This document shows, piece after piece, positions 2,161-26,929 of a stretch of DNA of 64,000 nucleotides (the stretch's first letter is position 1; each line of letters begins with the position of its first letter). Under the pieces are notes generated by a model, which searched no databases, was not told where the DNA came from, and saw only the letters and a list, made by a program, of their open reading frames with translations. Location of the stretch: positions 1,248,001 to 1,312,000 of the forward strand of contig CM000150.2 of the NCBI GenBank assembly GCA_000004695.1, written 5' to 3'. The DNA is from Dictyostelium discoideum. Lineage: Eukaryota. The position numbers were made by a program, and so were the translations under genes.

Positions 2161-4599
2161 TTATTCATTATTAATAATTGCTTGATAACCTTGTTGTTTT
2201 TGTTGTCTTAATTTTTTAAAACCAAAAGCAAACATTGAAATACCAGCAATTAAAATGATACCACCAATAATTGAAACAACAATTACAGGTACAAAACCTA
2301 AAATTTTAATTAATTTAAATTGAGAATTAAGTAAATCAATATTTGATTGTGAAGGAGTTGCAGTTTGACCAATTTTTAATATTGGATAAAATACATTTGA
2401 TTTCATATTTTTAAAAGTTGAATTTGAAGAAAACCAATTTGAAAACTCTGGAATTGCTAAATTAATTTGAAGTTTTAAATTATAATATAGAGCATTACCA
2501 GTGATTGGTTCTAAATCCAATGGTACTTGAGCACTTTGATAAGTTTGATTTAAACCTTGTAAATTATTTGAAGAATATTGTGGTGGCACTTCATACATAT
2601 CCCAAAGTGAAACATAAATTGGTAAATTTTGAATATCAGTTAAATTTGCAAAACCAGGTATAGTGGTTTTAAAAGTTGTTGAAATTGGGAAACTGTTATT
2701 CACCAAATAATATCTCTTTGTATCAATACCTTGAACTTGTGAATCACCACTTAATTCCAATTGAACTGGTCTAATTACATTCTCTTCGAATAGAGTCATA
2801 GTTTGAGGTGGATCAGATTGTAATGGTGGGAATTGACCAGACTCTGTGAAACCTTCAACTTGAACAGATCCATTCCAACATGTTAAAAATGTTTGCTCTT
2901 GGAATTCAAAGATTTGATTTGTCATTGATAGATCTTGTTGACCTGTGAAAATGGTGGATGGTTTATTGACAGTGTTATTCTGTTGGAGTGCACATGGTTG
3001 ATCAACACCCAAGTAATCCAATATACCATCTTGACAATTCCATAACCAATCATCCATTGATCTTGTTACAATCAAACCACCATATTTTTCATAAAGTCCA
3101 AGTATAGTTGGTTTATTATATTGTTCATAGAGTTCGGCAGTGGCATAACCAATGATTTTAATAGCATCGAATAATGTTACATTATATTGTTTAAAAGTAT
3201 CAAATGATTTTGAAGCAGTTAAGAAATTAACTAACCCATTTAAATTCAATATTGAATTACTATCAGACTCATTGAATAAACTTTTATAGGCCTGTTGTAC
3301 CGATACACTTAATTTTACATCAATACCAATCGATTGATAAAGCAATGGAATTTCAATTGGACCTTGATCAAATGGTTGTGTTAAAAATGTATAATTTGAA
3401 ATGGATCTACCATTCAAAGCATTACCAGTAACAAATTGACAAACTCCCAACATTGAAATATCTGGTATATCACAAATTTCATTAACATATGATTCTGTAT
3501 AAACTTTTGAAAAATCATTTAACCACCAATTTAAAATCATATCAATTTGATCCACTGTTAATTGCAATTCCGATGTTAATACGGTTATTGAAGTTTTATC
3601 ACCCAATAATGCATTGATCCATAGGGTTGAACCAATCTCTTGATTTAAAATTGAATTTTCATTTGAAGAATTAAATAACAACTTTGCAGATAATATTGAA
3701 ATATTTGATGATTCATTATTATTATTTACTGATGATACCAACATACCATACCAACCATTACCTTTTTGTGGAATTGATGTTGCATTTGCCCATTGTTGGT
3801 AGAAATACTGTTCATCACCATTCAATGATTTTAAAATATTTAAATATTGTTCTTGATAAAGTTTTGGATTTTGTGTGAAATAAACTATATTTGTAAAGTT
3901 ATCACTTGACAAATATTCTAAAAACAATCTCATTTGACCACAACCACTAAGTGCTATTAATAAATTCTCTGCTGGCATATTATCTAATAACTCTGCATTT
4001 GGTGCTAATTGAAACATTAATCCCAAATAAGCTGGATTAATATTTGTAATCATAATTTCATTTGGATCATTTGGTGACATATCTGATTGATAAATAAATG
4101 ATTTACTTTGTGTATAAGTTGCTAAATTACCACCATCTTGAAATGTTACATTACTAAAATTAAATTCATATTTATAATTAAATGGTCCAACCGTTTCAAA
4201 TATTGGTATTGATCCATTTAAAAATTCATTTGGATTTGTCTTTTTTTTTTTTTAAAAATAAAATAAAAAGTTAGAAAAAAAAAAAATAATTAAAATTTTT
4301 TAAAATTAAAAATAAAAGATTAAAAAGTAAGTACTTACTAAATTCCAAGCATAAAAGTATTGTTGATAATAATTTTCAATTGATTGTTGTCCTGCCCAAT
4401 CATTATATCTTTGACTTGATGTGGAGTCTACAATGACAGCTTGTATTACTGCATTTTGTGTTGTTTGATTTATTAGATGTGGTAAAAGTGCAAATGCTAA
4501 AATAAATAATACTGCACCTATAACTGCTAAAAATATACCAGATACTAAACAACCTTTATGGTTCACCATTTTTCTATGGCAACACCCTCTTTTTACCAT
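2161..4599 (-). CDS. lmpA: CD36/LIMP-2 (scavenger receptor class B) family lysosomal membrane protein, two exons: complement join(4339..4599, 2161..4239), 779 aa
   Basis: Exon 1 has an N-terminal cytoplasmic Cys cluster (MVKRGCCHRKM..) followed by a TM helix. It ends ...QQYFYAWNL | GTAAGT. Exon 2 resumes after AG with TNPNEFLNGS..., so the joined sequence gives the CD36-family hallmark YF(Y/F)..N(L/V)TNP(E/N)E (compare LIMP-2 FYFFNVTNPEEIL). It has a large luminal domain with many N-x-S/T sites and a C-terminal TM (VPVIVVSIIGGIILIAGISMFAF) before a short tail. The symbol is tentative: the reconstructed 779 aa matches my recollection of LmpA, and hspD lies nearby on the same chromosome arm. 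Confidence 0.7.
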
Positions 4600-5446
4600 C
4601 TTTATATTATATATTTAAATATTTTGTTTTGTTTTTTTTTTTTTATATTTATATTTTATCCACCTATTTTTTAATTTTTTATTAATTTTTTTTTTTTTTT
4701 TTATACACAGTGTTGATGTTTATGTGTAATTTTTTTTTTTTTTATTTTTTTTTTTTTTAATTTAAAATCCAAAATAGTCAAATGTAAAAAATAAAAAAAA
4801 AAAAAGAAATGGAATTTTTTTAAAAAAAAAAAAAAAAATAAAAAATAAAAATAAAATAATTTAAAAAAAAAATAAAAATAAAAAAATCCCAAAAAATCCA
4901 AAAAATAAAAATAAAATAAAAAAATCACAAAAAATTTAAAATAAAAATAAAAATAAAAATAAATATTGAAATATAATAAAAAAATATATATTGACCATAA
5001 AAATACAAATATTTCTTAAAAAAAAAAAAAAAAAAATTTAATCCAACCATTTTGGGATAATCAATTTAAAGTTTTATTAAAAAAAAAAACAAAACCGTTT
5101 AATTTCCTATTTTATTAAAAAAAAAAAAAACCATTGCACAAATTTTTGTTGTTTTTTTATTTGAAGTTCAAAATGTGATGAAATGTGTGATTGTCCATCA
5201 AAATAAATAAATAAATAAAAAAAAAAAAAAAAAAAACCGTTTAATTTCCTATTTTATTAAAAAAAAAAAACCATTGAGCAAATTTAATTTCCTTTAATTT
5301 GAATTTCAGAGTTTAAGTGTTTTTTTTTAAAAATATCAAAAAAAAAAAAAAAATCAACGGTTTTTTGGACTCATCAAAATTTTTTTTAATTTTTTTAATT
5401 TTTTTTATTTTAAATTAATTCCTTTAAAAAGAAATATAAAAAAAAA

Positions 5447-5561
5447 ATGAAATTAAATATATTTTATTTATTTGTAATAGTTTTAACATTATCAAATATC
5501 AACAATGTTTTTGGTGATCTTAATCAAGCTGAATGTAAATATTTTATTTTATTTTCCACAC

Positions 5562-5592
<31 letters not shown>

Positions 5593-5637
5593 CCACTTAA
5601 TTTCTGAATTTTTAATATGTATAGTTTTAATTTCTTA

Positions 5638-5684
<47 letters not shown>

Positions 5685-5863
5685 TATAGTTTGGCAAGCA
5701 ATTACCAAGATACTGTAATACTCAATTCACTCGGTGTTCCATCAACATTTTGTTCTTTAGGTGCAGCATATGGTGCTTGTAATTCCAATGGATCAGTTAC
5801 TGATTTGTAAGTTTTTAATAATTTTTTTTTTTCTAAAATTTTAAAATAACTTGGAAACACTAA

Positions 5864-5894
<31 letters not shown>

Positions 5895-6898
5895 AAAATA
5901 GAACTTTTAAACCAACAGTATACAGTAGTCCAATAAAAACAGATGATTTAAAATGTTTACCATTCCTTGCTTCGTTTAATTTAGTTAATGGATTTGCTAA
6001 CCCATCAATTTTACAAACAAATTCATATAACACAAACTTGAAAAAAATGTAATGTATAATTAAAAAAAATAAAAAATAAAAAATAAATACTACATTGATA
6101 ATTTATACTAATTTTTTATTATTTTTAATTATACATAAAAAAAAAAAAAAAAAAAGTAAATGGAGTTCTTATATTCCTTTTGATATTGATTTTGAAATTG
6201 GTAATTTAGATTCATTAGATTGGGGAAGTTCTCAAACTAGTCACATTTCAACAATTACTCCATATTCTTTAAAAAATGTTAGAATTTTGTAAGTAAAATA
6301 AATATACACACATATATGTGTATTTAATTTTTGAAAGAATTTAAATATTTATTTTCTTATTTATTTTTATTTTTATTTTCTTTATAGTAATTCTAAATCA
6401 AATGTTAATCTTGTTCCAGGTACAAATTCAGGTTATGTAAATAATTATACAATTTCATATTCTGGTAATTCAAATAATATGCCAGATTTAACAAATATGA
6501 TTAATGTTGGAACAATTTCAATGAATTTCGCATTATCATTTAATGAATCATCTTTTATTAATATGAATGGATATTCTAATGTATTAAAAACAATTTTAAT
6601 TTCAAGTTCAACAATAATGAGATTCCCATATGAATTAGCAAATGGTGTACCAAGAGATTATTTATACATTAATTCTGATGGTTTAAAAGCACCTTCTTCA
6701 CTAATTGATTTATCAAATATTCCATATATTAGTATGTTTCAAATTTTAAAAATGGGTCAAGATTTTAATTATCAAGGTAATTTTCCATTTTCTAAATTAC
6801 CTTTAAAATGTAAATCTCTGTAAGTATATAAATATATATATATATATATAATTTATTTGTAAATAATAATAATAATAAAATAATGAATTAATAAATTA

Positions 6899-6931
<33 letters not shown>

Positions 6932-9146
6932 TCATTTTGCTAAAGGTAATACACCAAATGTTGATTGGCAAATCTTTGAAAATGTAACAGGTATAATGTT
7001 ACAAGATTTAAAAATTATTACACCATTCCCACCATCAAATCCATTTAGTCCATTAGTTACATCATTTGATGTTAGTCAAAATCAAATTGCAGGTCAAGTT
7101 GATGAATCATGGTGCTCAGTTTTATTAACTTTAAATAAAAATTTATTCACTGGTGTGATTCCAAATTGTTTTTATTGTTACTTGAATATTCAATCAATTG
7201 GTAATAGCTTTGCTCAAAATAATTTTGATAATTATAATACCACAAATAACAAATGTGGTTATGGTAAGTAAAAAAAAACTTAAAATTGATTTCTATATAT
7301 ATATATGTATACTATATTAATTTTTTTTTATTTTTTTTTATATATATATTAATATATAGATATCATTGTACCATATGTTTATTATAATAAAACATCAACA
7401 TTATTGACACTTAGAGGTAAAAATTTAGGTTGGGTACAAACTAATTTTAAAACATCAACTTGTGTAATTATTTTCACTGATCGATTTACTGTAGTTGGAT
7501 GTACAGGAACATATATGAATGTAACATTTGTAAATCAAAATTTAAATTTTACATTATCATTAGATGGTACAGAACCAATAATTAGTAATGTTATTCAAAC
7601 AAATAATACATTTATAATTAGTGGATCCTATTTTGCATATGAACCATCAATTATCAATGTTACAATTGATGGAGAGTCACCATTAAATTGTGAATTTACA
7701 AATTCAAGTATAATTCCAACATTTTATAGTATTCAATGTGATATTGGATATCCAGTGGTTGAATATGGGTTAAAGAATTTAACAGTACAAGTAAATAGTT
7801 TAGTTTCAAAACCATATGAATTTAGTCTTGATTATACTAAAGTGCCATGTCCAATTTCAGATTGTAATGGTAATGGTATTTGTAATGATCATATTGGTGT
7901 TTGTGAATGTTTTAATGATTGGAAAACAATTGATGATGAAATTTGTACAGTTGCAATTCATTATTTATCAGCATATACTCAAACATCAGATATCGATGGT
8001 GGTATCATTAATTTATATGGTTTCTTTGGTGATATTCATAATGATTATAAAGTTTTAATTGATGGTATTCAATGTCCAATCGAAGTTGCACCAACATCAA
8101 CAGTTTTTACAATTTCAGTTGACTCTGGTACAATTGGTACAAATTCATCAATTGAAATCATTCAAAATGATTTATCATTCCATGGTACAATCTATCCATA
8201 TGAAAATTTAATTAAAGAATGTCCATCGAATTGTAATGGTATCAGCAATGGTAAATGTAATAGTACAACTGGTGAATGCACTTGTAATGAAGGTTTCATC
8301 GGTGTTGATTGTATCAAACTCACAAATTATACATTACCAACCATCACATCATCAATTTCAAATGTTGGTTTATTATTTAAAAGTGAACAAACTGTTTTTA
8401 TAGCTTCATTTTATTCATTTGTTGAAGTTGATTACACTGGTACCATTATTAAATCAGTTGTAATAAGTTCATGGGAACCTGAAAATATTAACCAAGGTAT
8501 TAAATACACTGGTTCATCGTCAAATAGTGATGGTGTTTTTGAAATTACATTTTTAAAAGTACCAACAAATCAACAATTTTCATTTGCAGGTAATGAATTC
8601 AACATTGGAGCAGGTGGTGCTAAAATGTCAATAACAGTTTCAAATTACACATATTCAAACCAATCAAATTATTTAGTCGCGGCTATGCAAGCTAAAGCTG
8701 AGTCAGATCCAAGATCACCAATTCAAAATAAGTGTAATAATGGTACAATCGTAATTACATCACAATCAAATAGTAATTTAACTTTAAATAATTATAATTA
8801 TTTTACAATTTCAAAAGATGCTAAAAGATTATCAATTAGATTACAAGATAGATTAATATCAGATGGTCAAGCAACTTTTATGGTAAATCAACTTAATATT
8901 CAACAACCTGATCATAGTTTATTATTTGGTATGTCACTCCCACATTGTGGTAAACAATGTTCAATCGATGGTCCTGATTTTATTGTTAACATTGAATCAA
9001 ATTATAAAGTTTTAAGTTCATGTTCACCACAACCAACATCAACACCAAAATCAAGCTCTGAAGAACCATCTTCTTCATTAAAACAACAATCTTTAATTTC
9101 TTTTATTTTAATAATATTTTTAATTTCATCAATTATTTTAAATTAA
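5447..9146 (+). CDS. Secreted or GPI-anchored LRR / IPT-like / EGF-like receptor-like protein, paralog 1. About 7 exons (approx 5447..5533, 5674..5815, 5901..6048, 6157..6286, 6371..6821, 6931..7263, 7361..9146)
   Basis: Exon 1 encodes a signal peptide (MKLNIFYLFVIVLTLSNINNVFG) and ends at a GTAAAT donor. Short exons chained by GTAAGT..AG junctions carry plant-type LRR-like units (FDVSQNQIAGQVDESWC, LNKNLFTGVIPNCF). The large last exon carries an IPT-like beta domain and two EGF-like modules (CPISDCNGNGICNDHIGVCECFNDW; CPSNCNGISNGKCNSTTGECTCNEGFIGVDC). It also carries the family C-terminal motif SLPHCGKQCSIDGPDF, then a Ser/Thr/Pro stalk and a hydrophobic C-terminus (LISFILIIFLISSIILN) that suggests a GPI signal. 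Confidence 0.6.
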
Positions 9147-9305
9147 ATTAAATTAAATAATTATTAAATTATTAAAAGTAAAAAATTAAATAATTATTTG
9201 TTTTTTATAAATTTTTTAAAAAAATATATTTTAATTATTATTATTATTATTAATTTTTTTTTTTTTATTAATTTATTAAAATTAATTAATTTAATTTAAT
9301 TTTTA

Positions 9306-11652
9306 TTAATTAATAATATTATAACCATTATATTGATTATTATTATAAAAAGTTTTACGAAAACCATTAATTGCCATTACTAAACCAGCAATTAATAAGA
9401 TACCACCAAAAATTGAAACTACAACTACTGGAGCAATTTTAACAGTTTGAATTTGTTTAAATTGTTGTTTTAATAAATTTATATCATTTGTTGAAGCGGT
9501 TGCAGTTTGACCAATTTTTAAACTTGGATAAAAAATACCAAAACTATTGCTATTGGTTGGACTAAAAATATTTGTCCAATTACCTAATGAAGAGAACCAT
9601 AAACTATTTGCATTTGAAGGAATTTGTAAATTAATTTGAAGTTTTAAATTATAATAGAGTGTATTACCAGTGATTGGTTCTAAATCCAATGGTATTTCAG
9701 CATTTTCATAGGTTTGATTTAATCCATTAATATAGAGTGAACTATATTCTATTGGTACACCATACATATCCCAAAGTGAAACATAAATTGGAACACCATT
9801 AAAAAGACCAGTTAAATTTGCAAAACCATTGATTGAATTATTAAAAACTGGATCAATTGGAAAACTTTGATTTGGTAAATAATATCTTTGAGTTGAAACA
9901 CCCATTACTGATGAAGATGAAGAATGTACCAATGAAAGTGGTCTTAAAATATTCTCTTCAAAAATGGTTAAACTTTGTGGTAGATTATCTTGAACCAATG
10001 GAGCCATTTGACCATTTTCAACGAAACCAGTTACATTTACAGTACCATTCCAAATGGTAAGTGTTGATTGTTCTTGAAATTGTTGATATTGATTAGTTAA
10101 TGATAAATCTTTCTTTCCTGTATAAACAGTTGATGGTTTAAAAATTGTATTATTTTGTTGAAATGAACATTGTTGATCAATACCTAAATAATCTAATAAA
10201 TCATCTTGACAATCCCATAACCATTCATTTGCAGTTCTTGTAACAATTAAACCAGATGTATTATAAAATGATTGAACAGATTTAATTGAATAACCAGTTG
10301 TATTTGGAATATAACTTAAAAAGTAACCAATCATTGTCATTGCATCATTATTTGTTAAATTCCATTTTGTAAAATTATTACTATTTGTTGACATTTGTTC
10401 AAGAAATAAACCTAAACCGTGAATTGTTAATAGGGAATCATCAATACTATCATTAAATAAATTGGATTGAGCTTCATTTGTTGAAATTGTTAAATTTGTA
10501 CCCATTGCAATTGGAATTTCAATTGGTTCTAACCAAGGTAAATTTGTTATATTAAATTGACTAATTGATTTATAACCTAATGGTATTGTTGTTATAAATT
10601 GACAAACACCTAATAGTTCAATTGATTCAATTTCACATTGCTTTAATAATTGGCTCATTGTATATTGATCATTAAATCCTTTTAACCACCAAATCATTAC
10701 CAATGTTAATTGTGCTTGATTAATACCTAATTCTTGTTCAAGTATTTGATATGAATTTGAATTTGGACCATTAAAAACTGCATTTATCCAATAACTAATA
10801 CCATTGGTACTATTTAATAATGAATATTGATTCATTGGATTTAAAATTTCCAATGCCGATTGTAAACTTATACCACTTGGTGAATCTAATCCATAAGATA
10901 TCAACATATTATCCCATAATGAACTATTACCATTGGTTGGAATAATAGTTGAATTTGACCATTGTTCTAAAAAATAAATGGTTGGAGTTGTTGTTAAATT
11001 ATTATTAATTGTTGATAATAATAATTGATATTGTTGATTAAAATATTTTGGACCATTATAAAAATATGCAATCATTGTAAAATTATCACTTGATAAATAT
11101 TCTAAAAATTGTTTAGTTTGTGGTGCTGATGCTAAAGTATATAATAAATCCTCTGCTGTCATACCTAATGTAATTGAATTTTTTGATAGTGTTGATAATA
11201 AACCTAAATAAGCTGGATTAAAATTGGTTGTACTAACTGTAAATGGATTTAATGAATCCTCACCTTCAATCCATTTATATGATTTACTTTGAATATAATT
11301 TATTAAATTGCCATCATCACTAAATGAAACTTTACTATTATTCCATTCATATTTATAATTAAATGGTCCAATCTTTTCAAAATTACAATTTTTACCATTT
11401 AATACTTCATTTGGATTTGTCTATATTTTTAAAATTTATTAATTATTTATTTATTTTTTTTTGAAAAAAAAAAAGTACTTACCAAATTCCAAAGATAATA
11501 ATATTGTTTAAAATAATTATCTACTGATTTTTGTCCTGCCCAATCATTATATCTTTGACTTTTCTAATTTTAATTTAAAAAAAAAAAAAAAAAAAATCAA
11601 ATTAAAAAAAAAGAAAAGAAAATTAGTTTTTTTTGATCTTTTTTGGGTTAAC

Positions 11653-11690
<38 letters not shown>

Positions 11691-11874
11691 AAAATAAATT
11701 TGAAAATAAAAAAAAACTTACAAAAGAATCAACAATTACAGCATCAACTATAGCATTATTTGTTGCAACATTTAAAACTGAAGGTAAAAGTGCAAGTGAT
11801 ATAACAAATAATGCTGCACCAATCACTGATAAAAGTAAACCAGCAATTAATAAACCTTTATTGTTTGCAACCAT
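9306..11874 (-). CDS. lmpC: CD36/LIMP-2 family lysosomal membrane protein paralog, three exons: complement join(~11722..11874, ~11482..11562, 9306..11420), 782 aa
   Basis: Exon 1 is MVANNKGLLIAGLLLSVIGAALFVISLALLP...VDSF | GTAAGT. A 27-codon middle exon reads KSQRYNDWAGQKSVDNYFKQYYYLWNL | GTAAGT. Exon 3 begins TNPNEVLNGK..., with the acceptor in the same place as in the paralog at 2161..4599. It shares the two-TM topology and the C-terminal TM (APVVVVSIFGGILLIAGLVMAI). The symbol is tentative: the reconstructed 782 aa fits my memory of LmpC, and it is a clear paralog of the upstream gene. Confidence 0.65.
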
Positions 11875-12112
11875 TATAATTATTATTATTTTTTTTTTTT
11901 TTTTTTAATTTTATTTTACTATTTTTTTTTTTTGTTATTATTATTTAATAATAATATAGATAAAAAATATTTATTTATAAAATAAATAAAAAATAAAAAA
12001 ATAAAAAAAAAAATAAAATAAAAATAAAAAAAAAAAAAAAGTTTGAAAAAAAAAAAAAAAAATAAAAAAAAAAAAAATAAATAAAAATCAATAGTTGATC
12101 TCTTAAACCAAA

Positions 12113-14650
12113 ATGGAGGATCTACTTAATCTTTTTAATAGAAAAATTAATTTTGAAACAACCTTAAATAGTAATAATAATAATTATAATAATAAAAGTA
12201 AAAAAAAAAATAACTCTAATCAACTTAAAAATCATTTCATTCAATTAATTGATAAAATTTCAAATTCGTTAAATAGTAATAATAATGATTTTAATAATAA
12301 TTTTAAGTCTTTACAAATTGTCGAATTATTTAATTTAGTTAAATTATTACCATTTAAAGAAGAAAAAAAATTAGAAAATAATAATAATAATAATAATAAT
12401 TATAATAATTATAATGATGATCAGGATTATGATGATGATGATTATTATGATAATTTAATATTATATAACACAATTAGAAAAGAAACAATCGAATTAATTT
12501 TTAGAATTTTACCAAATATTTTAAAAAGGCAATCATTTCAATATGATAGTTCATTAATGACAACAATTTTCTCAGTTTCCGATCAACCAATATCATTAAA
12601 ACTATTAATCGCAATTCATACAACTAATTTAATTAATGATTATATATTATTTGAAAATTCTCAATTCAATATATTTATACCATATATTCACGATATATTT
12701 CATTATATTATATTATCTTTAAAAGTAATTATTATTATTTATTATTTAAATAATAAAATTATAAACATATTAATATTAATATTTTTATTTATATAAAAAA
12801 AGGAAAATAATTTAAAAATTAAAATTGAAATTTTAAATTTATTAGAATTAATAATTAATAATTTAAAAAATAATAATAATAATAATAATAATAATTTAGA
12901 ATCATATTTAAATAATTTAATAAATTTATTAATTGAAAATATAATAATAAAAAATAATAATGATGATGATAATAATATAGAACTTTATAATCAAATTTTA
13001 GATAATAATAATGAATTTTATATAATTAGAGAAAAAAGTGGTTTAATTTTAAAATTATTATCAAAAAATTATTTTAATAAAATAATTGAAAATTTAAATT
13101 TAATTTCAAATAATAATAATAATAATAATAATATTTATATAAAAGAAGGAATTTTAGAATGTTTTAATAAAATTAATAAATTTGAAAATGAAGAATTATT
13201 AAAAATTTTATTTGAAATTTATTTTATTAATCAAAATAATAATTCAAAAATTGAATGGATTTATTTTTCAACTATAATTAATAATTTATCAATAATTTAT
13301 AATAATGAAAATAATCAAAATAATAATAATCAATATTTTGAAATTATTTATAAAAAATTAAATGAATTAATTTTAATTGATAATGAAATTATAAAAATTT
13401 CAATATTTAATTTAATAAAATCAAATTATAAATTATTATCAACCGATTTATTTATTAAATTAATTTCATTAACATTACCAAAATTAAATAATAAAATTCA
13501 ATTTAAATCATTTATAGAATTATCAAAATTAATAATACCAAATTTAAATTTTAAATCATTTAAAATAATAATTGAATTATTAACATTACAATTTAATTAT
13601 TCAAATAATAATAATAATAATAAATATTTATATTTAGAATTATTTTCAATTATTATAAAAAATTTGGATTCTGAAAATTTTAAAAATTTTTATAGTAAAT
13701 TACCATTTGAATTATTTGATTTAATTTTATTAAAATTGGATTCATTAATTAATTTATATCAAGATTTTTTAGAAATAAAATTTATTGAACCAATTATAGT
13801 ATCATTGGAATTTTTAAATGAATCATTAGAGAATTTAGTAATTATAAATAATATTGATTCAATTTATTATTATAATATTATTAATATTATAATAAAATGT
13901 TTAGAAATTATTAAACCAAATGAAATCATTTTAAAATCATTAATTTTATTATCAAACCTTTTTAATTTAAATTGGTCATCAATTTCAACAATGGTACCAA
14001 TCTTTGAATTAACACAATTGGATAAAATTTTAAAATTAATTTATAAATTTTTAATTTATGATAAAAGATTATTAATTATTAAAAATTCATTTATTGTTTT
14101 AAATAATTTATTAAATTCAAATTATTCAAAATTAGTTCAACCATATTTAAATGAATTAATTTTAGAAATTTCTTTAAATTGTTATTATTTAAATAATAAT
14201 TATAATAATAATAATAATCAAAATAATCAAAATTTTAAAAATTTACAATTAAAAGAAATTATTTCAATTACTTTTAGTAAACTTTTATTAAATATTGATC
14301 AATATACAATTGAAAATTTTAAATGTTTTTCAAATTTAATTGATAATTCTTGGTGTTCATTTATTTTAAATGATAATCAATCAATTTTATTAATTTTAGA
14401 TATAATTTGGAATGATCCATCATTAATATCATTTAATTCAAATCAAACTTTTAATTTAAAAACAACTTTATTAAAATCAATTAATAATAACCATAATAAT
14501 ATAAATTTAAATAATTTTAATAATAATAATAATAATAGTTTAATAATTTTATTAAAATTAAAATTAAAAGAAATTAAAACAAATTCTCCAATTATTTTGG
14601 AAAAATTAAAAAAATTTTTAAATTCTGATTTATTATTTTTATTTTCTTAA
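12113..14650 (+). CDS. Asn-rich low-complexity protein of unknown function, two exons: join(12113..~12724, ~12801..14650)
   Basis: The ORF 12113..12796 contains a GTAATT donor after ...LSLK, and the intron ends ...aaaaaaaAG at about 12800. The same reading frame then stays open through 12801..13663 into the annotated ORF 13664..14650. It is AAT-encoded poly-N and Asp-rich (DDQDYDDDDYYD). Helical repeat segments hint at an ARM/HEAT-like fold. I recognise no diagnostic motif. Confidence 0.45.
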
Positions 14651-14888
14651 AAAAATAGAAAAAAAAAAATGAAAAAATAAAAAAATAAAAAAAGCTTCTT
14701 AAACAAAAAAAAAAAAAAAAAAAAAATTTTATTATTATAGTTTGTTTATTTAATTTTTATTTAATTTTTTTTATTATTTTTTTTTTTTTTTTTCTAATTT
14801 AATTAATATTAATTGTGAAACTAATAAATTTATCAGAAACCATTTATATTTAATTTTTTTTATTTTAATTTTGTTTTTTTTTTTTTTT

Positions 14889-14929
<41 letters not shown>

Positions 14930-15018
14930 AAAACGAAAAAAGTTTTTTTTTTATTTTCATTTTTTTTAATTTTAAATATATAAATATTTTATTTAAAAAA
15001 AAACTTTTTTTTTAAGAA

Positions 15019-16188
15019 ATGGGTCCAAAAGGTAAAAAGAAAGGTCAATCATTTGATGATTCAGATGAAGAAATTAATAATAAAAAAGGTGGAAATAAAA
15101 AAGGACAACAATTAGAAGATGATATTCCTCAACCAGTTAAAAAGGGTGGAAATAAAAAAGGTCAAAGAGGTAAACAAGACTCTGATGATGAACCAGAAAA
15201 TATTCCTCAACCAGTAGCAAAGAAGAGTAATAATAAAAAAGGTCAAAGAGGTAAACAAGATTCAGATGATGAACAAGATGAAATTCCTCAACCACAAAAG
15301 AAAGGTGGTAAACCAGCTCCACAACCACAAAAGAAAGGTGGTAAACAACAAGATTCAGATGATGAACAAGATGAAATTCCTCAACCAGTTAAAAAAGGTG
15401 GTAAACCAGCTCCACAAAAGAAAGGTGGTAAACAACAACAACAACAAGATTCAGATGATGAACAAGAAGAAATTCCTCAACCAGTCAAGAAAGGTGGTAA
15501 ACCAGCTCCACAAAAGAAAGGTGGTAAACAACAAGATTCAGATGATGAAGAAGATGAAATTCCTCAACCAGTTAAGAAAGGTGGTAAACCAGCTCCACAA
15601 AAGAAAGGTGGAAAACAACAAGAATCTGAAGATGAAGATGAAGAAGATGAAGTTCAACAACCAGTAAAGAAAGGTGGTAAAAATGATAAAAAGAAAGGTG
15701 TTAAACATGTTGAAGAAGAGGAAGAAGAAGAGGAAGAAGAAGAAATTGAACAACCAGTTAAAAAAGGTGGTAAAGCTCCAAAACCAAAGAAAGGTGGTAA
15801 GGGTAGTAAACAAGAATCTGAAGATGAAGAAGATGATGTTCAACAACCAGTAAAGAAAGGTGGTAAAAAAGATAAAAAGAAAGGTAGTAAACATGTTGAA
15901 GAAGAGGAAGAAGAAGAAGAGGAAGAGGAAATTGAACAACCAGTTAAAAAAGGTTCAAATAAAAAAGATCAAAAGAAAGGTGGTAAAGGTAAACATGTTG
16001 AAGAAGAAGAGGAAGAAGAAGAAGAAGAGGAAATTGAACAACCAGTAAAAAAAGGTTCAAATAAAAAAGATCAAAAGAAAGGTGGTAAAGGTAAACAACA
16101 ACAAGAATCTGAAGATGAAGAAGAGGAAATTCAACAACCAGTAAAGAAAGGTGGTAAAAAAGATAAAAAGAAAGGTAGTAAACATGTT

Positions 16189-16220
<32 letters not shown>

Positions 16221-16424
16221 AGAAATTGAACAACCAGTTAAAAAAGGTGGTAAAAAAGATAAAAAATCAAGTTTGGAAGATAGTATGTCAGAACTTTCAA
16301 TTAAATCAAAGAAAGGTGGTAAGGGTAAACATGTTGAAGAAGAAGAAGAACAAGAACAAGAAGAAGAAGAGGAAAAACCAAAATCAAAATCAAATAAAAA
16401 AGATAAAAAGAAAGGTAAACATGT

Positions 16425-16457
<33 letters not shown>

Positions 16458-18447
16458 AGAAAAACCAAAATCAAAATCAAATAAAAAAGATAAAAAGAAA
16501 GGTAGTAAACATATTGAAGAAGAAGAAGAAGAAGAAGAAGAAGAAGAAGAAGAAGAAAAAGAAGAAGAAGAAGAAAAAAAAATGACATTAGCAGAAATTA
16601 GAGCAGCAAAAAAAGTTAAAAAAGTTGATAAAAAAGAGAAAAAGAAAGAAAAAGAGAAAAAGAAAAGAGATGAACAAGAAGAGGATGCATTCGAACTTGC
16701 AAAAAAGAAACAACAAGAAGAGATTGATTATGATAATATTGATATTGATGATGTACCAGGTAAAGATGCACCAACCTATGTTCATTTGAAATCATCAGAA
16801 GGTTTAAGAAGTAAAATTGGTAATGATATTAAATTTGATAATTTAATACTTTCAGTTCCAGGTAGAATTTTATTAAATAATGCATCACTTACACTTGCCT
16901 ATGGTCAAAAGTATGGTTTTGTTGGTAGAAATGGTATTGGTAAATCAACATTGGTTAAAAAGATTGCAATGCGTGATGAAATTACCATTGCACCACATCT
17001 TCGTGTATTGTATGTAGAACAAGAGGTAACTGGTGATGATACAACTCCATTGGATTGTGTATTGGCAGCTGATGAAGAAAGAAAATGGTTACTTGATGAA
17101 GAGAAAGTTTTAACAGAATTGGAAAAAGTTAACCCAAGTTGGCAATTTGATCCACGTCAAAAGAGAAATTACTCACTTCGTGATATTTATGATCGTCTTA
17201 AAGAGATTGATGCCGATAAAGCATCGATTAGAGCTGCAAACATTTTAATTGGTTTAGGTTTCACATTTGAAGAGATATCTGTAAAGAAATCTAGAGATTA
17301 TTCAGGTGGTTGGAGAATGAGAATTGCATTGGCAAGAGCACTCTTTTGTAAACCAGAAGTATTATTACTTGATGAACCTTCAAATCATTTAGATTTACAT
17401 GCTTGTGTTTGGTTAGAGAAATATTTAAATCAATGGGATCGTACATTATTGGTTGTATCTCATGAAGCTTCATTCCTTAATGAGGTTGTTGATAATATCA
17501 TTTACATTCATGATCAAAAGTTGGATCAATACAGAGGTAACTATGATGCATTTATGAAACAAAAATCTGTAAATCTTAGATCAAAAGAAAAGGAAAAAGA
17601 TAAACAAGATAGAAAATTAAAGAAAATGAATGAATTCATTACAAAGAATAAGAATAATACTCAAGCTAAACAAGCAGCATCTCGTGCAAAGAAAATGGAG
17701 AAAATTGAAACCATTGAACTTGAGCGAGAGGATGCTTCACTCGTTGTAGATTTCCCACAACCTGAACATTTAACACCACCATTATTGGTATTTAAAGATG
17801 TTTGCTTCGGTTATGAAGGTAGACCAACTATGTTTAAGAAATTGGATATTGGTATCGATATGGATTCAAAGATTGCTTTGGTTGGTATGAATGGTGTTGG
17901 TAAGTCAACTCTTATGAAACTAATGAATGGTGATCTTCATGAAACCACTGGTTACATTGAAAGAAGTAGAAAAATGCGTGTAGCTAGATTCTCTCAACAT
18001 TTTGTCGATCAATTGGATACCACTATGACACCAATCGAATATTTCCAATCGAAATTCAATAATCCACCAGTTCAACAAATTCGTAATCATTTAGGTAGAT
18101 TTGGTATTTGTAATTCCTTACCATTACATAAAATTACAACTTTATCTGGTGGTCAAAAGAGTAGAGTCATTTTAGCTGAATTAGCTTGGGCTGAACCTCA
18201 TATTCTCTTATTGGATGAACCAACAAATCATCTTGATATTGATGCTATCGAAGCTTTAGCTGAAGGTATTAATGCTTTCACTGGTGGTGTAGTTTTAATT
18301 TCTCATAATCAACATTTAATTAATTTAATTGCTGAACAAATTTGGGTTGTTAAAAAAGATGGTACAATTTATTTATATCCAGGTACTTTTATGGATTATA
18401 AAAATGAAATTTCAAGAGAAATTGATAATATGGTTATTAGAAGTTAA
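15019..18447 (+). CDS. abcF1: ABC transporter F family (ABCF1/ABC50-type) ATPase. Two nucleotide-binding domains, no TM domain, and an N-terminal Lys/Glu-rich tandem-repeat region of about 520 aa
   Basis: It is a single 1142-aa ORF. NBD1 has Walker A GRNGIGKST, the signature YSGGWRMRIALARAL and Walker B LLLDEPSNHLD. NBD2 has Walker A GMNGVGKST, the signature LSGGQKSRVILAEL and LLLDEPTNHLD. It has no hydrophobic helices. A long charged N-terminal extension is typical of ABCF1, not ABCF2 or ABCF3. The symbol is inferred from that architecture. Confidence 0.75.
15230..16565. repeat. In-frame coding tandem repeats inside abcF1. There are about 5 copies of a 90-bp unit (DSDDEQDEIPQPVKKGGKPAPQKKGGKQQ) and about 6 copies of a roughly 100-120-bp unit (KHVEEEEEEEEEEIEQPVKKGGKKDKKKGS)
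   Basis: Near-identical nucleotide units are visible directly (caagattcagatgatgaacaagatgaaattcctcaaccagttaaaaaaggtggtaaaccagctccacaaaagaaaggtggtaaacaa...). The overlapping ORFs on both strands (15137..15328, 15266..15667, 15538..15939, 15860..16048, 16151..16426, 16301..16588) are frame artefacts of this repeat. Confidence 0.8.
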
Positions 18448-18896
18448 ATAATAAATAATGAAATAAAAAAATAAAAAAAAAAAAAAATAAAAAAAAAAAT
18501 AAAATAAAATAAAATAAACTAATCACTTCTTATTCTAAAAATAAATTAAATAAAAATAAATAAAATTAAAAATAAAAAAATAAAAAATAAAAAATAAAAA
18601 ATAAAAAAAAAAAAAAAAAGAAAAAAAAGAATCTATTAACGCATTTTCATTTTGATTGTGCAAATGTTTTTTTGATTGGAAAATATCTTTTTTTTTTTTT
18701 TTCTTTAATTAACAAAAAAAAAAAAAAATCAAAATTAAAATTCTCAACCAATAATCTAAATATGTTTTAAAAGCCAATTGATTTTTTTTTTTTTTTTTAT
18801 TTTATTTTATTTTTTTTTATATATTTTCTTTTTTTTTCTATATATTTATATATTTTTTTTATTATTTATATTTTTTTTTTTAAAATTTATAATAAA

Positions 18897-19655
18897 ATGA
18901 AATTAATATTTATTATAATTTTATTTATAATTTTTAAAGTAAAACCATTTTTATCAAATAATTTATCAACTAGTGAATGTAAAATTACATTTGAAATAAT
19001 TAAAAATAAATAAAAAAATAAAAAAAAACTAAAAAAAAATAAATTTTAATAAATAAATAAAATAAAAAATAATTATAATAATTTTTAGATAGTTGTGCTA
19101 ATGATATTTCAGAATTTTTAATAGATACAACATTTATTTATAATGGTACATATGGATATGAATTTTGTGAGAATAAAAATTTCTTTTGTAATGGTGATAG
19201 TGTTGTTAGAATTAATTTTAATGGTTCAGATTCATTTGGAGTAACATATTTAAATTGTTTTAAACAACTTTCTTATTTGTATGGTATTATAAGTTTTTTT
19301 ATAATTTTTATTTTTTTTTAATTAATAAATTTTCCAAACTAATATTTAAAAAAAAAAAAAAAAAAAAAGAAAATTAGATCATTCAAAAATGCCATTACAT
19401 TTTTTTAGTACATATATAATTTCACCAATAAATGAAATGTAAGATTAATATATTTTTTTTTTTTATACTAATATTTTTAAAAAAAAAAAAATTATATATT
19501 AACCAAAATAAAAAATAGTTTTATAAATGAACCATCTAATGATATATCATTTTCAAATGTAATATTAAATCCTTCAATTAAAATATTGTAAGTTTTTTTG
19601 TTTTTTTTTTATTTTCATAATAAATTAAAATTTTAAAATAATAAAATTAATTCAA

Positions 19656-19709
<54 letters not shown>

Positions 19710-22700
19710 GTAATTTTATAGGAAAATCACCATCAACTATGAATTTTAATTTTTCTTCATTTAGTGATGTTCAAAATTTAACAATTAAATATATTGGTTC
19801 AGATCCAAATTGGACATATTATAATGATTTAACGTCAAGTAAAACAATGTCAAGTTGGACTATAGTATCTTCAAATGTCCCATCTTTTAATTTAATGAAA
19901 ATTAATTTTTTGTAAATATTTAAATTTATTTTTTTTTTTTCATATTTTTTATTTTTATATTTATTTATTTTTTTTTTTTTTATTTTTTTTTTTTTTTTTT
20001 ACTAATTTTTTTTATTTTTTTTATTTTTTTTATTTAGAAACATATTTTTAACAAAACAATATTCAGAAACAAGTAAAAATAATTATATAACATTTAAAGA
20101 TATTTCAATAGTTAAATTTGAATTATTTAATATTTCAAATTCATTTGAAATTCAATTCCCTGTTGAAATTTTTAATTTTGAAAGAAATTCTCAAGAAATG
20201 TAATTTTATTATTTTATTTTTACCATATAAATATGTATATATATTTAAAATTATTAATATTTTTAAAATTTTAGTGAATTTTCAATTCCATTTTCAAAAG
20301 TTCCAAATTTATTAGATTTTTCAACATTTACAAATAATAGTGGAATTAAAAAGTTAACATTATCAAATGCAGGTTTAAATTTTAATTTTAATTTAAAATT
20401 TCCATTTATAAATTTACAAAATTCATTTTCAAATATTAATCAATTGTAATTATAATTATTTATTATTATTTTTTTTATTATTTATTATTATTATTTATTT
20501 TTTAAATAATTTTATTAATTTTTTATTTTTAATAATTTACACAAAACAAAAAAGTTCATTTAATAATGGTAACTTTAATAATATACCAGATTTATCAATT
20601 TTTGGAATGTCAATTTCAATATTAGATTTATCAAATAATTTAATTAGTGATACACTTCCAGAATTTGAAAGAAGTAAAACAAATTTAAAACATATAAATT
20701 TAAGTAAAAATAATATTACTGGAATAATACCAAGTTCATGGTGTGAAATAGAAAATATTGATTTAACAAATAATAATTTAAATGGTGATTTACCATTATG
20801 TTTTTCTGTATGTATAATTTTTTTTTTTTTTTTTTTTATAATCATTTAAAAAAATGATAATTAACCACTACTTTTTTATTTTTGAAAATGAAAAACAGTG
20901 TTTTTATTCAATAAATTCAAATCAATTTATTAATAATCCAAATTTAATTGTACCAACAACAACAAATAAAATTAGTTATTGTAAAACTTCACCAAATTTG
21001 ATATTTAATAATAATGATAATTGTTTTTATTTTTTTGGATTAGATTTAGGTTCAAAAGTTTATTTTAAAACAAATCAAGATTTTATTTTTGCAAATGATT
21101 GGGAAATTATAATTCCAAATAAAAAATTTAAAAATTGTATTAATAATGAAACTGTATTAAATGACTTACCAACATTATTTGAATTTTATTATCCAAGTAA
21201 TGGTAATAATTTTACATTATCAACTGAAAGAAAGAATCCAATTATTACAGAAGTTCAAATTCCATCTAGTTCATTACCTGGAACTGTTATATTCATTGGT
21301 TCTTATTTTTCATACAATTCATCAATTATTAATATTTTAGTAAACGGGTATCAATGTTTAATAGAAGTTTCCAAATTTAATTATTTATTATGTAAAACTG
21401 ATATTGACGCAATAAATGAAAATAAATATATATTTTCAATTATAACAATTGAAACAATATCGTCAACACGGATTTCATTTATTCCAACTATTGAATCAAC
21501 TAAAATTATACAATGTAATGAATCATGTTTAGAAAATCAATTTTGTGCTAACGATATTGGGAAATGTAAATGTTTGGATGGCTATTTCGGTAGTACGTGT
21601 AATGGAATCGTACATTTTGTTTCAAGTGTTGATTCAGTTGATAGATTAGGTGGTATTGTTACATTGTATGGTGAATTTGGACCAGTTCATGATAATGCTT
21701 CTATTGAAATCGGTAATTTACTTTGTGAAATAATTGAAATTAATAATTATCAAGCTTTATGTAAATTAAATAGTTTTCCTGAAAATTCTTTAAAAATTCA
21801 ATTATTAAATTTCACACAAAATAATTTAATTTGGATATCAAATGAAATTTATCATATTCGTGAAACAATTTTAAATTGTCCAAATGATTGTAACCAATTT
21901 TCAGAATTAAAATCTGGTATATGTAATAAAACTATTGGTTTATGTAATTGTAATATTGGTTGGACAGGTTTTGATTGTAGTAGTAGTATTAATGTTAATT
22001 CAAATTCATCATCAATAAAACCAAATACAACAATAGATAATAATGGTACAACAACGATTTCTTTAGATTTTTTAAATTTTCAAATTTTAATTACAAAATT
22101 ATCTGAAATTAAATTTGATAATTCAATTTATAAAACTTTTAATCTTTTAAATAATTGGAATGTTTTAATTGATAATAATAATAATAATAATAATAATTTA
22201 TATAAATTTCAACAAATTATACCAGGTAATAGAGGTATTATTGAATTTACAATTGAAGAATCAACTAATGATAAAGAATATGAATTTATTGATACAAAAT
22301 ATAAACTTGAAAAAGGTTCAATTAAAATTTCAATTAATATTACAAATTACCAATTTAATAATCAATTAAATACATTACAATTGGAAATTGAAACAAAAAT
22401 AAATGATTATTATTATAATAATAATAGTAATTATAATAATTGTAATAGTAAAAAAGAATCATTAGAAACTTTTAATCAACAACAATTAAATTATATAATA
22501 ATTCAAAAAGATAAAAAACAATTATATGGTCGTTTTATTAATAGAATTTTATCAAATGGTAAACCAACTTTAATTGATACAAAATCAATTAAAAATTCTG
22601 ATAATACTTCAATTACTTTATTAATGTCAATACCACATTGTACAAAATCTTGTATTATTGATCCTGGTAAATATATTATTTTATTTTATTTTATTTTTTA

Positions 22701-23012
22701 ATTTATTATTATATTAATATTTTTTATTTTTTGAAAAAAAAAAAAATAAAAAAAAAAAAAATAAAAAAAAAAAAAAAAAAAAGATTTTTCAGCATTATTA
22801 TCAATTGATCATAAATCATCATGTAAAACTGATAGTGATGGAAATATTATAAATGAATCAGTTGATAAAGGAGTACCAAAAACAACAATAATTGCTGTTA
22901 TTATTTCAATTGTTGGCGTAGCAACCATATTTGGTATTGGTTTATTAATATATAGAAAGAAAAGAGTGGAAAATGAATTAGCTATAAAATTAAAAAATGC
23001 TCAAAAAAAATA
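18897..23012 (+). CDS. Type-I membrane LRR / IPT-like / EGF-like receptor-like protein, paralog 2, about 11 exons. The last large exon is 20918..22669 and the terminal TM/tail exon is ~22786..23012
   Basis: It starts with a signal-peptide exon (MKLIFIIILFIIFKVKPFLSNNLSTSE | GTAAAA, same phase and position as paralog 1). Several small exons have LRR character (e.g. ILDLSNNLISDTLPEF..LKHINLSKNNITGIIPSSW..IDLTNNNLNGDLPLCFS | GTATGT). The large exon carries IPT-like and two EGF-like modules (CNESCLENQFCANDIGKCKCLDGYFGSTCNG; CPNDCNQFSELKSGICNKTIGLCNCNIGWTGFDC) and the family motif SIPHCTKSCIIDPG | GTAAAT. The final exon encodes a TM helix (TIIAVIISIVGVATIFGIGLLIY) and a basic tail RKKRVENELAIKLKNAQKK before the stop at 23010..23012. 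Confidence 0.6.
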
Positions 23013-23527
23013 ATTTTTTTTTTTTTTTTTTGTTGTTTTTTCAAAATATTATAATATAACCAAAATAATATAAAAAAGAATAATAAAAAATATCTTTCTA
23101 TAAAAAACAACAGGTTTTATTTTTATTTATATGGGGACACAAAAATAAACCACCCAAAAATACACAAAAAAAAAAAAAAAAGTTTTAAATCAAAAAAACA
23201 ATTACTTTTTTTTTTAAAATATTTTGACAGGATGTAAAAATTTAAGAATATTTTTATTTATTTTTTAAAATAGGACAATACCTAGCAGTTTTGTTTTTTT
23301 TTTTTTTTTTTTTAATATAAAAAAATTAAAAAAAAAAAAAAAAAAAAAAGTATAAATTTAAGGTTAAAAGTTAAACTTTTAAATTAAAAAAAAAAAAATA
23401 AGAGTTAAAACAAAAATAAAAAAATAAAATAAAAAAAAAAAATTAAAAAAAAAAATAAAATAAAATAAAATAAAATAAAATTAAAAATTATTTTATTAAT
23501 TTATAAGTTTTTATAATAAATTTAAAA

Positions 23528-25446: not shown

Positions 25447-25640
25447 TTTTTAAAAAATAAAATAAAAATGAGAAATAATTAAAATAATTAAAACAAATAA
25501 ACATTAAAATGATATTTAGGTTTTAAATTTAAATTCTAAAATCACTATTAATTCTAACAATTTTAATCATTTTTATTTTTTTAAATATTTTTAAAAATTA
25601 AAACCATAATTAATAATTATTTTTTTAATTAAATAATATT

Positions 25641-25870
25641 TAACAAGATGTGACAAGAATTGAAATTTTTGGCACAATTTGGTCAAGTCACTAATTAAAG
25701 TTACCCCATCATGATATTTTTTAGGTGAGATGTGGGGTGGGATTGAATTAAGGGTTGTAAGACAGTTTTTTTTTTTTTTTTAATTTGATGGTTTTTTTTT
25801 TTTTTAACTTAAACTTTTTTTTTTAAGTTGGGAAACCCATAAGTGGGAAAAAAAAAAATTAAGAAAAAAA
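25641..25870 (+). promoter_or_regulatory. Conserved non-coding block with a G-box-like core (gagatgtggggtgggattgaattaagggttgtaag), about 140-370 bp upstream of psi copy B. It is duplicated at 31071..31260 upstream of copy D
   Basis: The block runs about 90% identical to 31071..31260 (tgtgacaagaattgaaattttt...gtcaagtcactaattaaagttacc[c/t]catcatga...gagatgtgggg[t/a]ggg[a/g]ttgaatta[a/t]gggttgtaaga). This G-rich island sits in otherwise poly-A/T DNA. G-box/CA-rich elements bound by GBF are established activators of post-aggregative Dictyostelium genes. A truncated third copy of the 5' part lies at 27561..27620. Confidence 0.4.
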
Positions 25871-25941
25871 ATAAAAAAAAAAAAAAAAAATTGATAATAA
25901 TTAAATTATTTTAAATTGGTTTATTTAAAGCACAGTGATAG

Positions 25942-25974
<33 letters not shown>

Positions 25975-26008
25975 GATTATTTATATCAAACTAAATAATA
26001 TATATATA

Positions 26009-26884
26009 ATGAATAATAACTTATTATCAGTATTAATTACATTTTTATTATCTACAGTGATTTATTCACTAGGTATAATTTTACAATATTATTTTTTTAA
26101 AAAATTATTATTTTATAAACTATTTTTACTAATTTTTTTTTTTTTTTTTTTTTATTTTTTTTTTTTTTTTTTTTATAAAAAAAATTAGCTAATCCAGCAA
26201 CTATAACATATTCTGTTCAACTGTATGACCAATTCTCAGGCTATAACAATAATTTCCAAACTAATGTAACTGGGGCTAGAGTTACTGGTTTAGTTAAATC
26301 AACTTTAAATTCAACGACTCGTGTACCTGAATTAGTTTCAACATCAAATGGTGGTTTAAATGATGCAGGTCATATTTTGAATCCATCATTATTCCAATAC
26401 TTTTTCAGTCCACAAATAAATTCAAGTTTACCAGCTGAAAATAATCCTTATTCTTTTGATTTAGTTTTCACATATGATAAAAATAGAAATACATATGTTT
26501 ATAATAATGAAGATTTTTTCCCAAGTAAGTAAATAAATTTTAATTTTTAATAAAATACAAATTTAAAATATTAATAAAATAATATAGTTGATCGTAAAGG
26601 TTTTGATATTGACCCAGAAAAAAGAATTAATTTAAATGGTGCAACCTATCATAATTATCATTTTTGTATGAAAATTAATTCTGCTTTTACCTATCAAGGT
26701 TCAGAATATTTCAATTTCCAAACTGACCATGAAGTTTGGTAAGTAATTGTTTTAAAAAAAAAACTATAAAATTATAAAATCAATAATAAATAATATTTTA
26801 AGTGATAAATATTAATAATATAATTTTTTAATTATTTATTAATATTATAATTATAATTTTTATATTTTTATTTTTATTATTACT

Positions 26885-26929
<45 letters not shown>

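Follow-up and report, generated by a model that had tools for sequence, protein, structure and literature searches.

In this study, we analysed a stretch of 64,000 nucleotides from Dictyostelium discoideum (contig CM000150.2, positions 1,248,001 to 1,312,000 of the forward strand; hereafter the window, numbered from its first letter), in which two genes of the CD36/LIMP-2 family lie interleaved with genes for large surface proteins carrying leucine-rich repeats (LRR), IPT/TIG and EGF domains. The window, with about 20% G+C, is an ordinary stretch of D. discoideum chromosome 1, and the genes of the locus are already in the public annotation. Both CD36/LIMP-2 homologues lie on the minus strand and their spliced models match proteins of D. 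discoideum AX4 exactly: lmpA (DDB_G0267406, Lysosome membrane protein 2-A) at 2161..4599, with exons 4599-4339 and 4239-2161 and 779 amino acids (aa; Q9XYS8 / XP_647472.1), and lmpC (DDB_G0267440, Lysosome membrane protein 2-C) at 9306..11874, with exons 11874-11722, 11563-11483 and 11420-9306 and 782 aa (Q55FQ9 / XP_647474.1). Between them, on the plus strand, gene 1 (DDB_G0268412) occupies 5447..9146 with seven exons (5447-5534, 5674-5806, 5902-6048, 6157-6288, 6388-6809, 6931-7263, 7360-9146; 1013 aa), divergent from lmpA across a spacer of 847 bp and convergent with lmpC across a spacer of 159 bp. Two further genes of the same type follow, namely gene 2 (UniProt C7FZW4 locus) at 18897..23013 on the plus strand, with ten exons (18897-18978, 19089-19278, 19370-19438, 19519-19587, 19711-19911, 20038-20199, 20275-20445, 20555-20807, 20899-22666, 22784-23013) and 1064 aa that match KAM9944029.1 exactly, and gene 3 at 47307..51499 on the minus strand, with nine exons (51499-51415, 51343-51196, 51121-50978, 50799-50674, 50602-50381, 50156-49920, 49821-49684, 49597-47631, 47506-47307) and about 1088 aa. 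A first-pass annotation of the window by a model had found all five genes in these places; it ended gene 2 at 23012, one base short of the stop codon at 23011-23013, and left the strand of gene 3 unstated. We consider it likely that lmpA and lmpC and three anciently diverged, ComC-like surface glycoprotein genes became neighbours here through genome history and do not form a co-regulated module.

That the two genes flanking gene 1 belong to the CD36 family, as the first-pass annotation had proposed, is borne out by Pfam (CD36, 6e-30 for LmpA and 2e-25 for LmpC) and by the hydrophobic helices visible at both ends of each spliced protein. They do not merely resemble the already characterised LmpA/LmpB/LmpC system but are lmpA and lmpC themselves. 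D. discoideum has three class B scavenger receptors, of which LmpA and LmpC form one clade and LmpB stands apart. Roles in uptake and phagosome maturation are described for all three, LmpA being mostly endolysosomal and required for phagosome acidification and proteolysis and LmpB being located at the plasma membrane, while Phg1A, a TM9SF protein related to adhesion, is in the current view a regulator of SibA surface levels (PMC5758549; PMC11552500). The description of CD36 and TM9SF proteins as players in phagocytosis and adhesion thus holds for the Lmp proteins, and for Phg1A with this change in the understanding of its role. Metagenome bins of Asgard archaea (Heimdall-, Hod- and Promethearchaeota) additionally contain CD36-family proteins (P0043, P0045, P0048, P0051), with E values against LmpA between 1e-27 and 1e-33 in alignments that cover 18-45% of the query.

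The spliced models of genes 1 to 3 were assembled manually, on the basis of open frames and canonical GT..AG sites. All three genes begin with a signal-peptide exon, which is followed in phase 1, after a residue E and at the same aligned position, by intron 1; the introns of the LRR region are mostly in phase 2, and a large exon ends in LPHC..C.ID(P/G). The exon plan initially claimed for the family is recovered in its phase-1 signal-peptide exon and in the large exon with its motif, but the GTAAAT donor said to be shared is that of gene 1 only, since gene 2 uses GTAAAA and gene 3 GTAAGT. For gene 1, other strains carry an allele of 1016 aa, which falls into one cluster with XP_647473.1 / Q55FR0; the AX4 database model, 940 aa long, uses the same 6809/6931 junction as ours but is without exon 2 and the signal-peptide exon (window 5447-5806). 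From the AX4 database model of gene 2 (XP_002649210.1, 1023 aa) two short stretches of the LRR region are missing (window 19283-19765), and both of these database models look incomplete. The exon 2/3 junction of gene 3 was chosen to agree with a 1091-aa protein of another strain (P0224), and gene 3 models of 1083, 1085, 1086 and 1088 aa found no exact match in the protein collection. A model of 1181 aa from another assembly, which continues about 650 nt past the stop codon (window 46400-47300, minus strand), was treated as over-extended, the extra region holding weak open segments only; a small separate gene may lie there.

The C-terminal ends divide the three genes into two kinds. In genes 2 and 3, a phase-1 intron after IDP leads into an exon that encodes a transmembrane (TM) helix followed by some 10-20 residues of basic tail, in which no enzymatic or adaptor domain is present. 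Splicing into such an exon had been predicted correctly, but from IDPG, of which the G is the first base of the next codon, so that the spliced protein reads IDP-D-F. Gene 1 lacks this intron. It retains the LPHC..C.IDP(D)F motif (LPHCGKQCSIDGPDF) and, as had been read before, continues past it: a Ser/Thr/Pro stalk follows and, at the very end, a hydrophobic stretch of the type expected for glycosylphosphatidylinositol (GPI) attachment, the C-terminus being ...EEPSSSLKQQS-LISFILIIFLISSIILN. On the sequence, gene 1 combines a signal peptide, a C-terminal hydrophobic stretch without cytoplasmic tail, small residues at the candidate ω site and a short polar spacer, and the GPI-like end is kept in all gene-1 orthologs examined (P0001-P0005, P0059). 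A TM helix with a short basic tail is found in 84 of the 101 family representatives with the PHC..C..D motif, among which clear GPI-like ends occur in the gene-1 orthogroup only; two further calls (P0132, P0138) look like truncated TM models. The split between membrane-spanning and lipid-anchored variants is therefore real as a feature of the sequences, and the product of gene 1 is probably lipid-anchored. In a Pfam search of the full-length models of genes 1 to 3, no kinase, TIR or other signalling domain was found.

The first-pass annotation had treated genes 1 to 3 as a three-gene family without a name. The family is the ComC family, named but poorly studied, for which the Pfam models LRR_ComC (PF24141), two β-sandwich models (PF24142/PF24143) and the supersandwich model ComC_SSD (PF22933) were built on ComC. 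ComC_SSD scores 96.1, 165.8 and 186.5 bits in genes 1, 2 and 3 (3e-27, 1.5e-48 and 7e-55) against a cut-off of 24 bits. LRR_ComC, with a cut-off of 27 bits, reaches 74 bits in gene 1 (2e-20) and 62.4 bits in gene 2 (7e-17) and is borderline in gene 3 (24.6 bits, E 2.5e-5). TIG was detected in gene 2 with 29.9 bits and in gene 3 with 28.6 bits (cut-off 20.9 bits), EGF_2 with 28-31 bits in genes 1 (3e-7) and 3 and with 22.3 bits in gene 2 (cut-off 22.1 bits), and Beta-sand_ComC_2nd stays below its 27-bit cut-off in gene 1 (23.7 bits). The earlier domain calls of CD36, extracellular LRR, IPT/TIG, EGF and TM9SF are all reproduced by Pfam, those of LRR and IPT also by the structure search described below.

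The gene that gave the family its name, comC (DDB_G0271692), encodes 1501 aa with 14 EGF modules, and its mutant shows aberrant aggregation and streaming, a cell-communication phenotype, and sporulates only in chimeras with wild type. The only characterised function in the family hence concerns aggregation and cell communication and not phagocytosis. Signal peptide, LRR_ComC, β-sandwich/IPT, EGF, supersandwich, LPHC..C.IDP and membrane anchor follow each other in the same order in ComC and in the window genes, and the D. purpureum comC ortholog (P0079, 1513 aa) displays this domain order as well, with 34% identity to gene 3 over 386 aa of the last part of the ectodomain, up to LPHC..C.IDP. We considered whether one of genes 1 to 3 could be comC itself and rejected this, since the window genes each contain two EGF modules in 1013-1088 aa, gene 1 corresponds to DDB_G0268412, the comC ortholog P0079 forms a family member of its own and comC lies at another locus. 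Gene 1 differs from comC further in that a GPI-like signal takes the place of TM helix and tail and in that it is expressed in growth and early starvation. Of these genes, only comC is known to have a mutant phenotype.

The size of the family was estimated with a profile of the 650 aa that the genes have in common, which was run against 1.84 billion representative proteins, with counts given as clusters at 50% identity. In contrast to a family of three, 173 clusters were found at E<=1e-30 and 634 at E<=1e-10, and every hit that carried a species name was dictyostelid. Word-indexed protein searches proved unusable as a family census, returning 5 hits with the gene-1 exon and 19 hits with a 50-sequence profile. 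A single genome probably holds tens of members, by our own inference; 45 LRR transmembrane proteins have been counted in D. discoideum (PMC11552500). Gene 1 shares 25% identity with genes 2 and 3, and its nearest relative in a neighbour-joining tree is DDB_G0292098 with 36% identity; genes 2 and 3 share 31% identity and are not sisters, and each has closer relatives elsewhere. With such low mutual identity and closer relatives outside the window, an origin of the three genes as recent local duplicates was rejected, and they represent three lineages that separated early within a large dictyostelid family. By our own estimate, which assumes some 30-45 family genes scattered randomly over 34 Mb, three members would fall by chance into a given 64-kb window with p of about 3e-5 to 1e-4, and into some window genome-wide with about 0.02-0.05. 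Such mild clustering fits old local duplication.

We compared the arrangement around gene 1 across related genomes. D. cf. discoideum and the other strains of D. discoideum share the order lmpA, one ComC-like gene, lmpC, and in D. firmibasis and D. citrinum two tandem gene-1 orthologs lie between lmpA and lmpC (locus spans 5905-13525 and 5785-13399). In D. purpureum the two CD36 genes enclose an acetyltransferase gene and a gene without Pfam hit, and in Polysphondylium violaceum they are directly adjacent; tblastn detected no ComC-like sequence at the CD36 loci of either species. The arrangement is thus confined, among the species compared, to the D. discoideum complex, with no conservation beyond close relatives. 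From its presence there and its absence in D. purpureum and P. violaceum it follows that lmpA and lmpC are an old tandem pair, between which a ComC-like gene arrived recently.

Expression was taken from a 19-point RNA-seq series of development on filters (PMC4403905, supplement 2), which covers gene 1, lmpA and lmpC. Gene 1 is present at about 7-12 units (RPKM-like) during 0-3 h and drops more than 10-fold from 6 h, and is thus a growth-phase and early-starvation gene. On the same scale, lmpA is present throughout with 14-47 units and peaks at 12-16 h, and lmpC, with 0.3-5 units, peaks together with lmpA. Over the 19 time points, lmpA and lmpC are correlated (Spearman 0.69, p=0.001), whereas gene 1 is correlated with neither lmpA (0.18) nor lmpC (0.09). 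A supplement to a dataset on exposure to bacteria groups gene 1 with comC under the Gene Ontology (GO) terms 'slug development' and 'spore wall assembly'.

Gene 1 furthermore stands out by its rate of change. Against a diverged D. discoideum strain (GCA_054859355.1), the AX4 protein differs by 11.3% in gene 1, by 6% in gene 2 (partial sequence) and by 4.3% in gene 3, compared to 1.7% in both LmpA and LmpC. Ratios of nonsynonymous to synonymous substitution rates (dN/dS) were calculated by the Nei-Gojobori method between AX4 and either this strain or D. cf. discoideum. Against the diverged strain, dN/dS is 0.05 for lmpA, 0.12 for lmpC and 0.52 for gene 1 as a whole, with 0.97 in its LRR, 0.27 in the IPT/EGF stalk and 0.45 in the supersandwich; against D. 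cf. discoideum, the corresponding values are 0.13 for lmpA, 0.19 for lmpC, 0.57 for gene 1 and 1.05 for its LRR. The rate of gene 1 is about 5-10 times that of the genes flanking it. Against the diverged strain, gene 3 has a dN/dS of 0.33 compared to 0.05-0.12 in its neighbours, and its polymorphism against strain GCA_054883475.1, a strain almost identical to AX4, is not elevated, with 1 mismatch across the gene, the diverged strain being the informative one for gene 3. Within the LRR, entropy over ten sequences of the gene-1 orthogroup, which mixes alleles, orthologs and tandem paralogs, is 1.33 bits at non-core β-strand positions, 0.81 at strand-core and 0.94 at non-strand positions (p=9e-5 for non-core strand vs non-strand). 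The LRR of gene 1 is probably a fast-changing binding surface. Because gene 1 evolves fast and its change is focused on the β-strands, the view of the LRR ectodomain as a putative recognition surface gains some support.

It should be noted that synonymous divergence between AX4 and GCA_054859355.1 spans a threefold range (0.157 in lmpA, 0.109 in gene 1, 0.056 in lmpC). Since it lies far above the within-species expectation, this strain may represent a cryptic lineage.

To place the architecture among known systems, an AlphaFold model of the gene-1 ortholog P0003 from D. firmibasis was obtained with a 35-sequence alignment, at a mean predicted local distance difference test (pLDDT) score of 86. 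The model displays all-β modules throughout the stretch between LRR and supersandwich, and its Foldseek matches include the IPT domains of plexin and Met and the ectodomains of the plant LRR receptors BRL2, HAESA, MIK2, PGIP and PEPR1. The supersandwich domain of gene 3 was modelled separately (pLDDT 84). The closest resemblance of the membrane-proximal supersandwich is to GLMP, a lysosomal protein and partner of the transporter MFSD1, and more precisely to its luminal domain; the full-length model also matches the GLMP entries 6nyq_C and 8r8q_B. The placement of the domain directly before a single TM helix and a short tail is shared as well, but identity with the supersandwich is 9% and genes 1 to 3 have no Pfam-level match to the GLMP family, so that the resemblance is one of structure and not established homology.

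With plant LRR receptors such as HAESA, BRL2, MIK2 and PGIP and with animal Toll-like receptors, the ComC-like proteins share the extracellular LRR solenoid, and variability at non-core β-strand positions, as in gene 1, is found in many immune LRR receptors. They differ from both in carrying neither kinase nor TIR domain and in having tails of about 10-20 residues or none, and the plant receptors in turn lack the IPT/EGF/supersandwich stalk on which the LRR is carried in ComC-like proteins. Tiger (Tgr) proteins, which include TgrB1/TgrC1 of kin recognition, likewise form a large family of type-I surface proteins in dictyostelids, contain IPT/TIG domains and have some polymorphic members, gene 1 being polymorphic too, but are devoid of LRR, EGF and supersandwich domains. 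We know of no allorecognition role for ComC-like genes. A search of the open full-text literature for comC together with lagC yielded no paper.

Several further features of the window are given as context. A psi array of PA14-domain genes, located by tblastn of psiE against the window, extends over 23527..32547 on the plus strand and begins directly 3' of gene 2, as previously noted. It comprises psiE (Q55FQ6) and three further psi-like copies in tandem, of which psiE itself (23527-25443) and the copy at 28791-30866 look complete, while those at 26188-27365 and 31531-32547 are partial matches to psiE. An old database protein of 1480 aa is a fusion of gene 2 and psiE, through which psiE falls into one protein cluster with gene 2. 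The 5' part of a TM9SF (EMP70) gene, presumably phg1A, starts at 62839 on the plus strand, in agreement with the earlier call, and continues beyond the end of the window at 64000 (Pfam EMP70, 5e-8 at 62839-63120 and 1e-31 at 63490-63999); some 40 kb separate it from gene 2 and some 11 kb from gene 3, and the intervening genes are unrelated. A gene for an ABC-F protein of 1142 aa contains in its N-terminal part (window 15019-16600) a long, internally repeated region rich in Lys, Gly, Glu and Asp (KKGGK..., EEEEEE), which is the cause of the strong skew in G/C and A/T at 14-18 kb. Of 77 mismatches that 21 kb of the window show against a strain otherwise nearly identical, about 50 fall into some 430 bp (window 41378-41805) upstream of a Usp-domain gene; either this segment has been replaced or the low-complexity DNA has given rise to an artefact of the alignment.

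We propose a model in which lmpA and lmpC would have arisen by ancient tandem duplication of a LIMP-2-like scavenger-receptor gene and a ComC-like gene would have moved between them in the lineage of the D. discoideum complex, with members of the ComC-like family tending toward loose clustering. The proteins would follow a common layout: after a signal peptide, an LRR solenoid of plant type would form the outer tip, carried on a rigid stalk that consists of β-sandwich/IPT and two EGF modules and is followed by the membrane-proximal supersandwich and a membrane anchor. Because of this architecture and of the genetics of comC, genes 1 to 3 most likely encode adhesion or ligand-binding surface proteins, whose signalling, if any, would proceed via partner membrane proteins. 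The first-pass annotation had instead taken the clustering as a sign of a coordinated module for particle recognition or innate recognition, in which pattern recognition by the LRR proteins would feed into LmpA/LmpC-dependent uptake alongside the CD36 paralogs and TM9SF. All products are indeed glycoproteins of the cell surface or the endolysosomal system, cells at the feeding stage express gene 1, and the LRR of gene 1 changes fast where many immune LRR receptors do; Dictyostelium LRR transmembrane proteins are moreover listed in reviews as unstudied candidate receptors (PMC5758549; PMC11552500). However, the interleaving is young and belongs to the D. discoideum complex only, the paralogy of the three LRR genes is remote within a large dispersed family, and gene 1 follows neither lmpA nor lmpC in development, while the latter two follow each other. 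LmpA acts mainly in endolysosomes rather than as a surface receptor, Phg1A is seen today as controlling SibA levels, the TM9SF gene is separated from genes 2 and 3 by unrelated genes, and comC points to developmental cell communication. We consequently regard a coordinated module as very unlikely. A number of points nevertheless weigh against our preferred model of neighbours brought together by genome history. Upon exposure to bacteria, compared to HL5, gene 1 is reduced with a log fold change of -1.07 and lmpA with -1.1 and -2.0 (two entries recovered); thousands of other genes are likewise down under these conditions, yet together with the head-to-head arrangement over 847 bp this leaves room for some shared regulation of gene 1 and lmpA in growth-phase cells. 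The estimate of chance clustering depends on an approximate family size, the GPI anchor of gene 1 is a prediction from its sequence, and a dN/dS near 1, which is not a formal site test, could also mean relaxed constraint instead of diversifying selection. DDB_G0268412 appears in no main text of the open full-text literature.

A role of genes 1 to 3 comparable to that of comC, namely in developmental cell-cell communication or adhesion at the multicellular stage and unrelated to feeding, would account for an architecture shared down to LPHC..C.IDP, for the aggregation and streaming defects of the comC mutant with its sporulation rescued in chimeras, and for the GO terms that DDB_G0268412 and comC have in common. 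These terms may be transferred annotation, though, and the transcript of gene 1, highest at 0-4 h, has almost disappeared from 6 h on, earlier than the formation of mounds and slugs, which makes such a role unlikely in our view. Gene 1 could alternatively be decaying in the laboratory strain, its fast evolution and a splice-site lesion in AX4 then both reflecting lost constraint. The lesion concerns intron 5 (6810..6935, plus strand), where the alignment with strain GCA_054883475.1 reveals an AX4-specific extra G at 6930 and T for A at 6935, at the acceptor. With the canonical GTAAGT donor at 6820, AX4 gene 1 falls out of frame, and low expression and an LRR dN/dS near 1 would agree with decay. 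Yet a GTAAAT donor at 6810 restores the frame at the cost of 3 aa, the AX4 model lacks exactly 3 residues at this place in the ortholog alignment, and the database model uses the same junction. The difference adjoins a poly(A) run of about 30 nt, and an error of the reference sequence is as likely here as a real lesion. In addition, every strain and species examined has an intact reading frame, D. citrinum and D. firmibasis in both of their tandem copies, stalk and supersandwich remain at dN/dS 0.27-0.45, and the variability of the LRR is structured, with core leucines kept and non-core strand positions varying. Decay of gene 1 is therefore improbable.

On the model of neighbours through genome history, the significance of the locus is limited by the fact that its genes are annotated, its CD36 genes well studied and its LRR/IPT/EGF family already in Pfam; the analysis further yields corrections to the AX4 gene models of genes 1 and 2. 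As a more far-reaching idea, which as a whole we consider quite unlikely, the DDB_G0268412 orthogroup would form, within the ComC family, a branch that is young, GPI-anchored and expressed in the growth phase, with the binding face of its LRR under diversifying selection, serving the feeding amoeba as a recognition receptor for prey, pathogens or other amoebae. The head-to-head insertion with lmpA could then reflect a link to the LIMP-2-like pathway, and the GLMP-like supersandwich could make ComC-like proteins accessory subunits of multi-pass membrane proteins. To our knowledge, no pattern-recognition receptor has been identified in Dictyostelium. DDB_G0268412 is singled out here as a candidate receptor, being probably lipid-anchored, expressed in feeding cells and fast-evolving in its LRR, with variation at non-core β-strand positions. 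Its emergence as a fast-evolving LRR surface protein and the resemblance of the membrane-proximal domain of the ComC family to GLMP are the most useful outcomes of this study.

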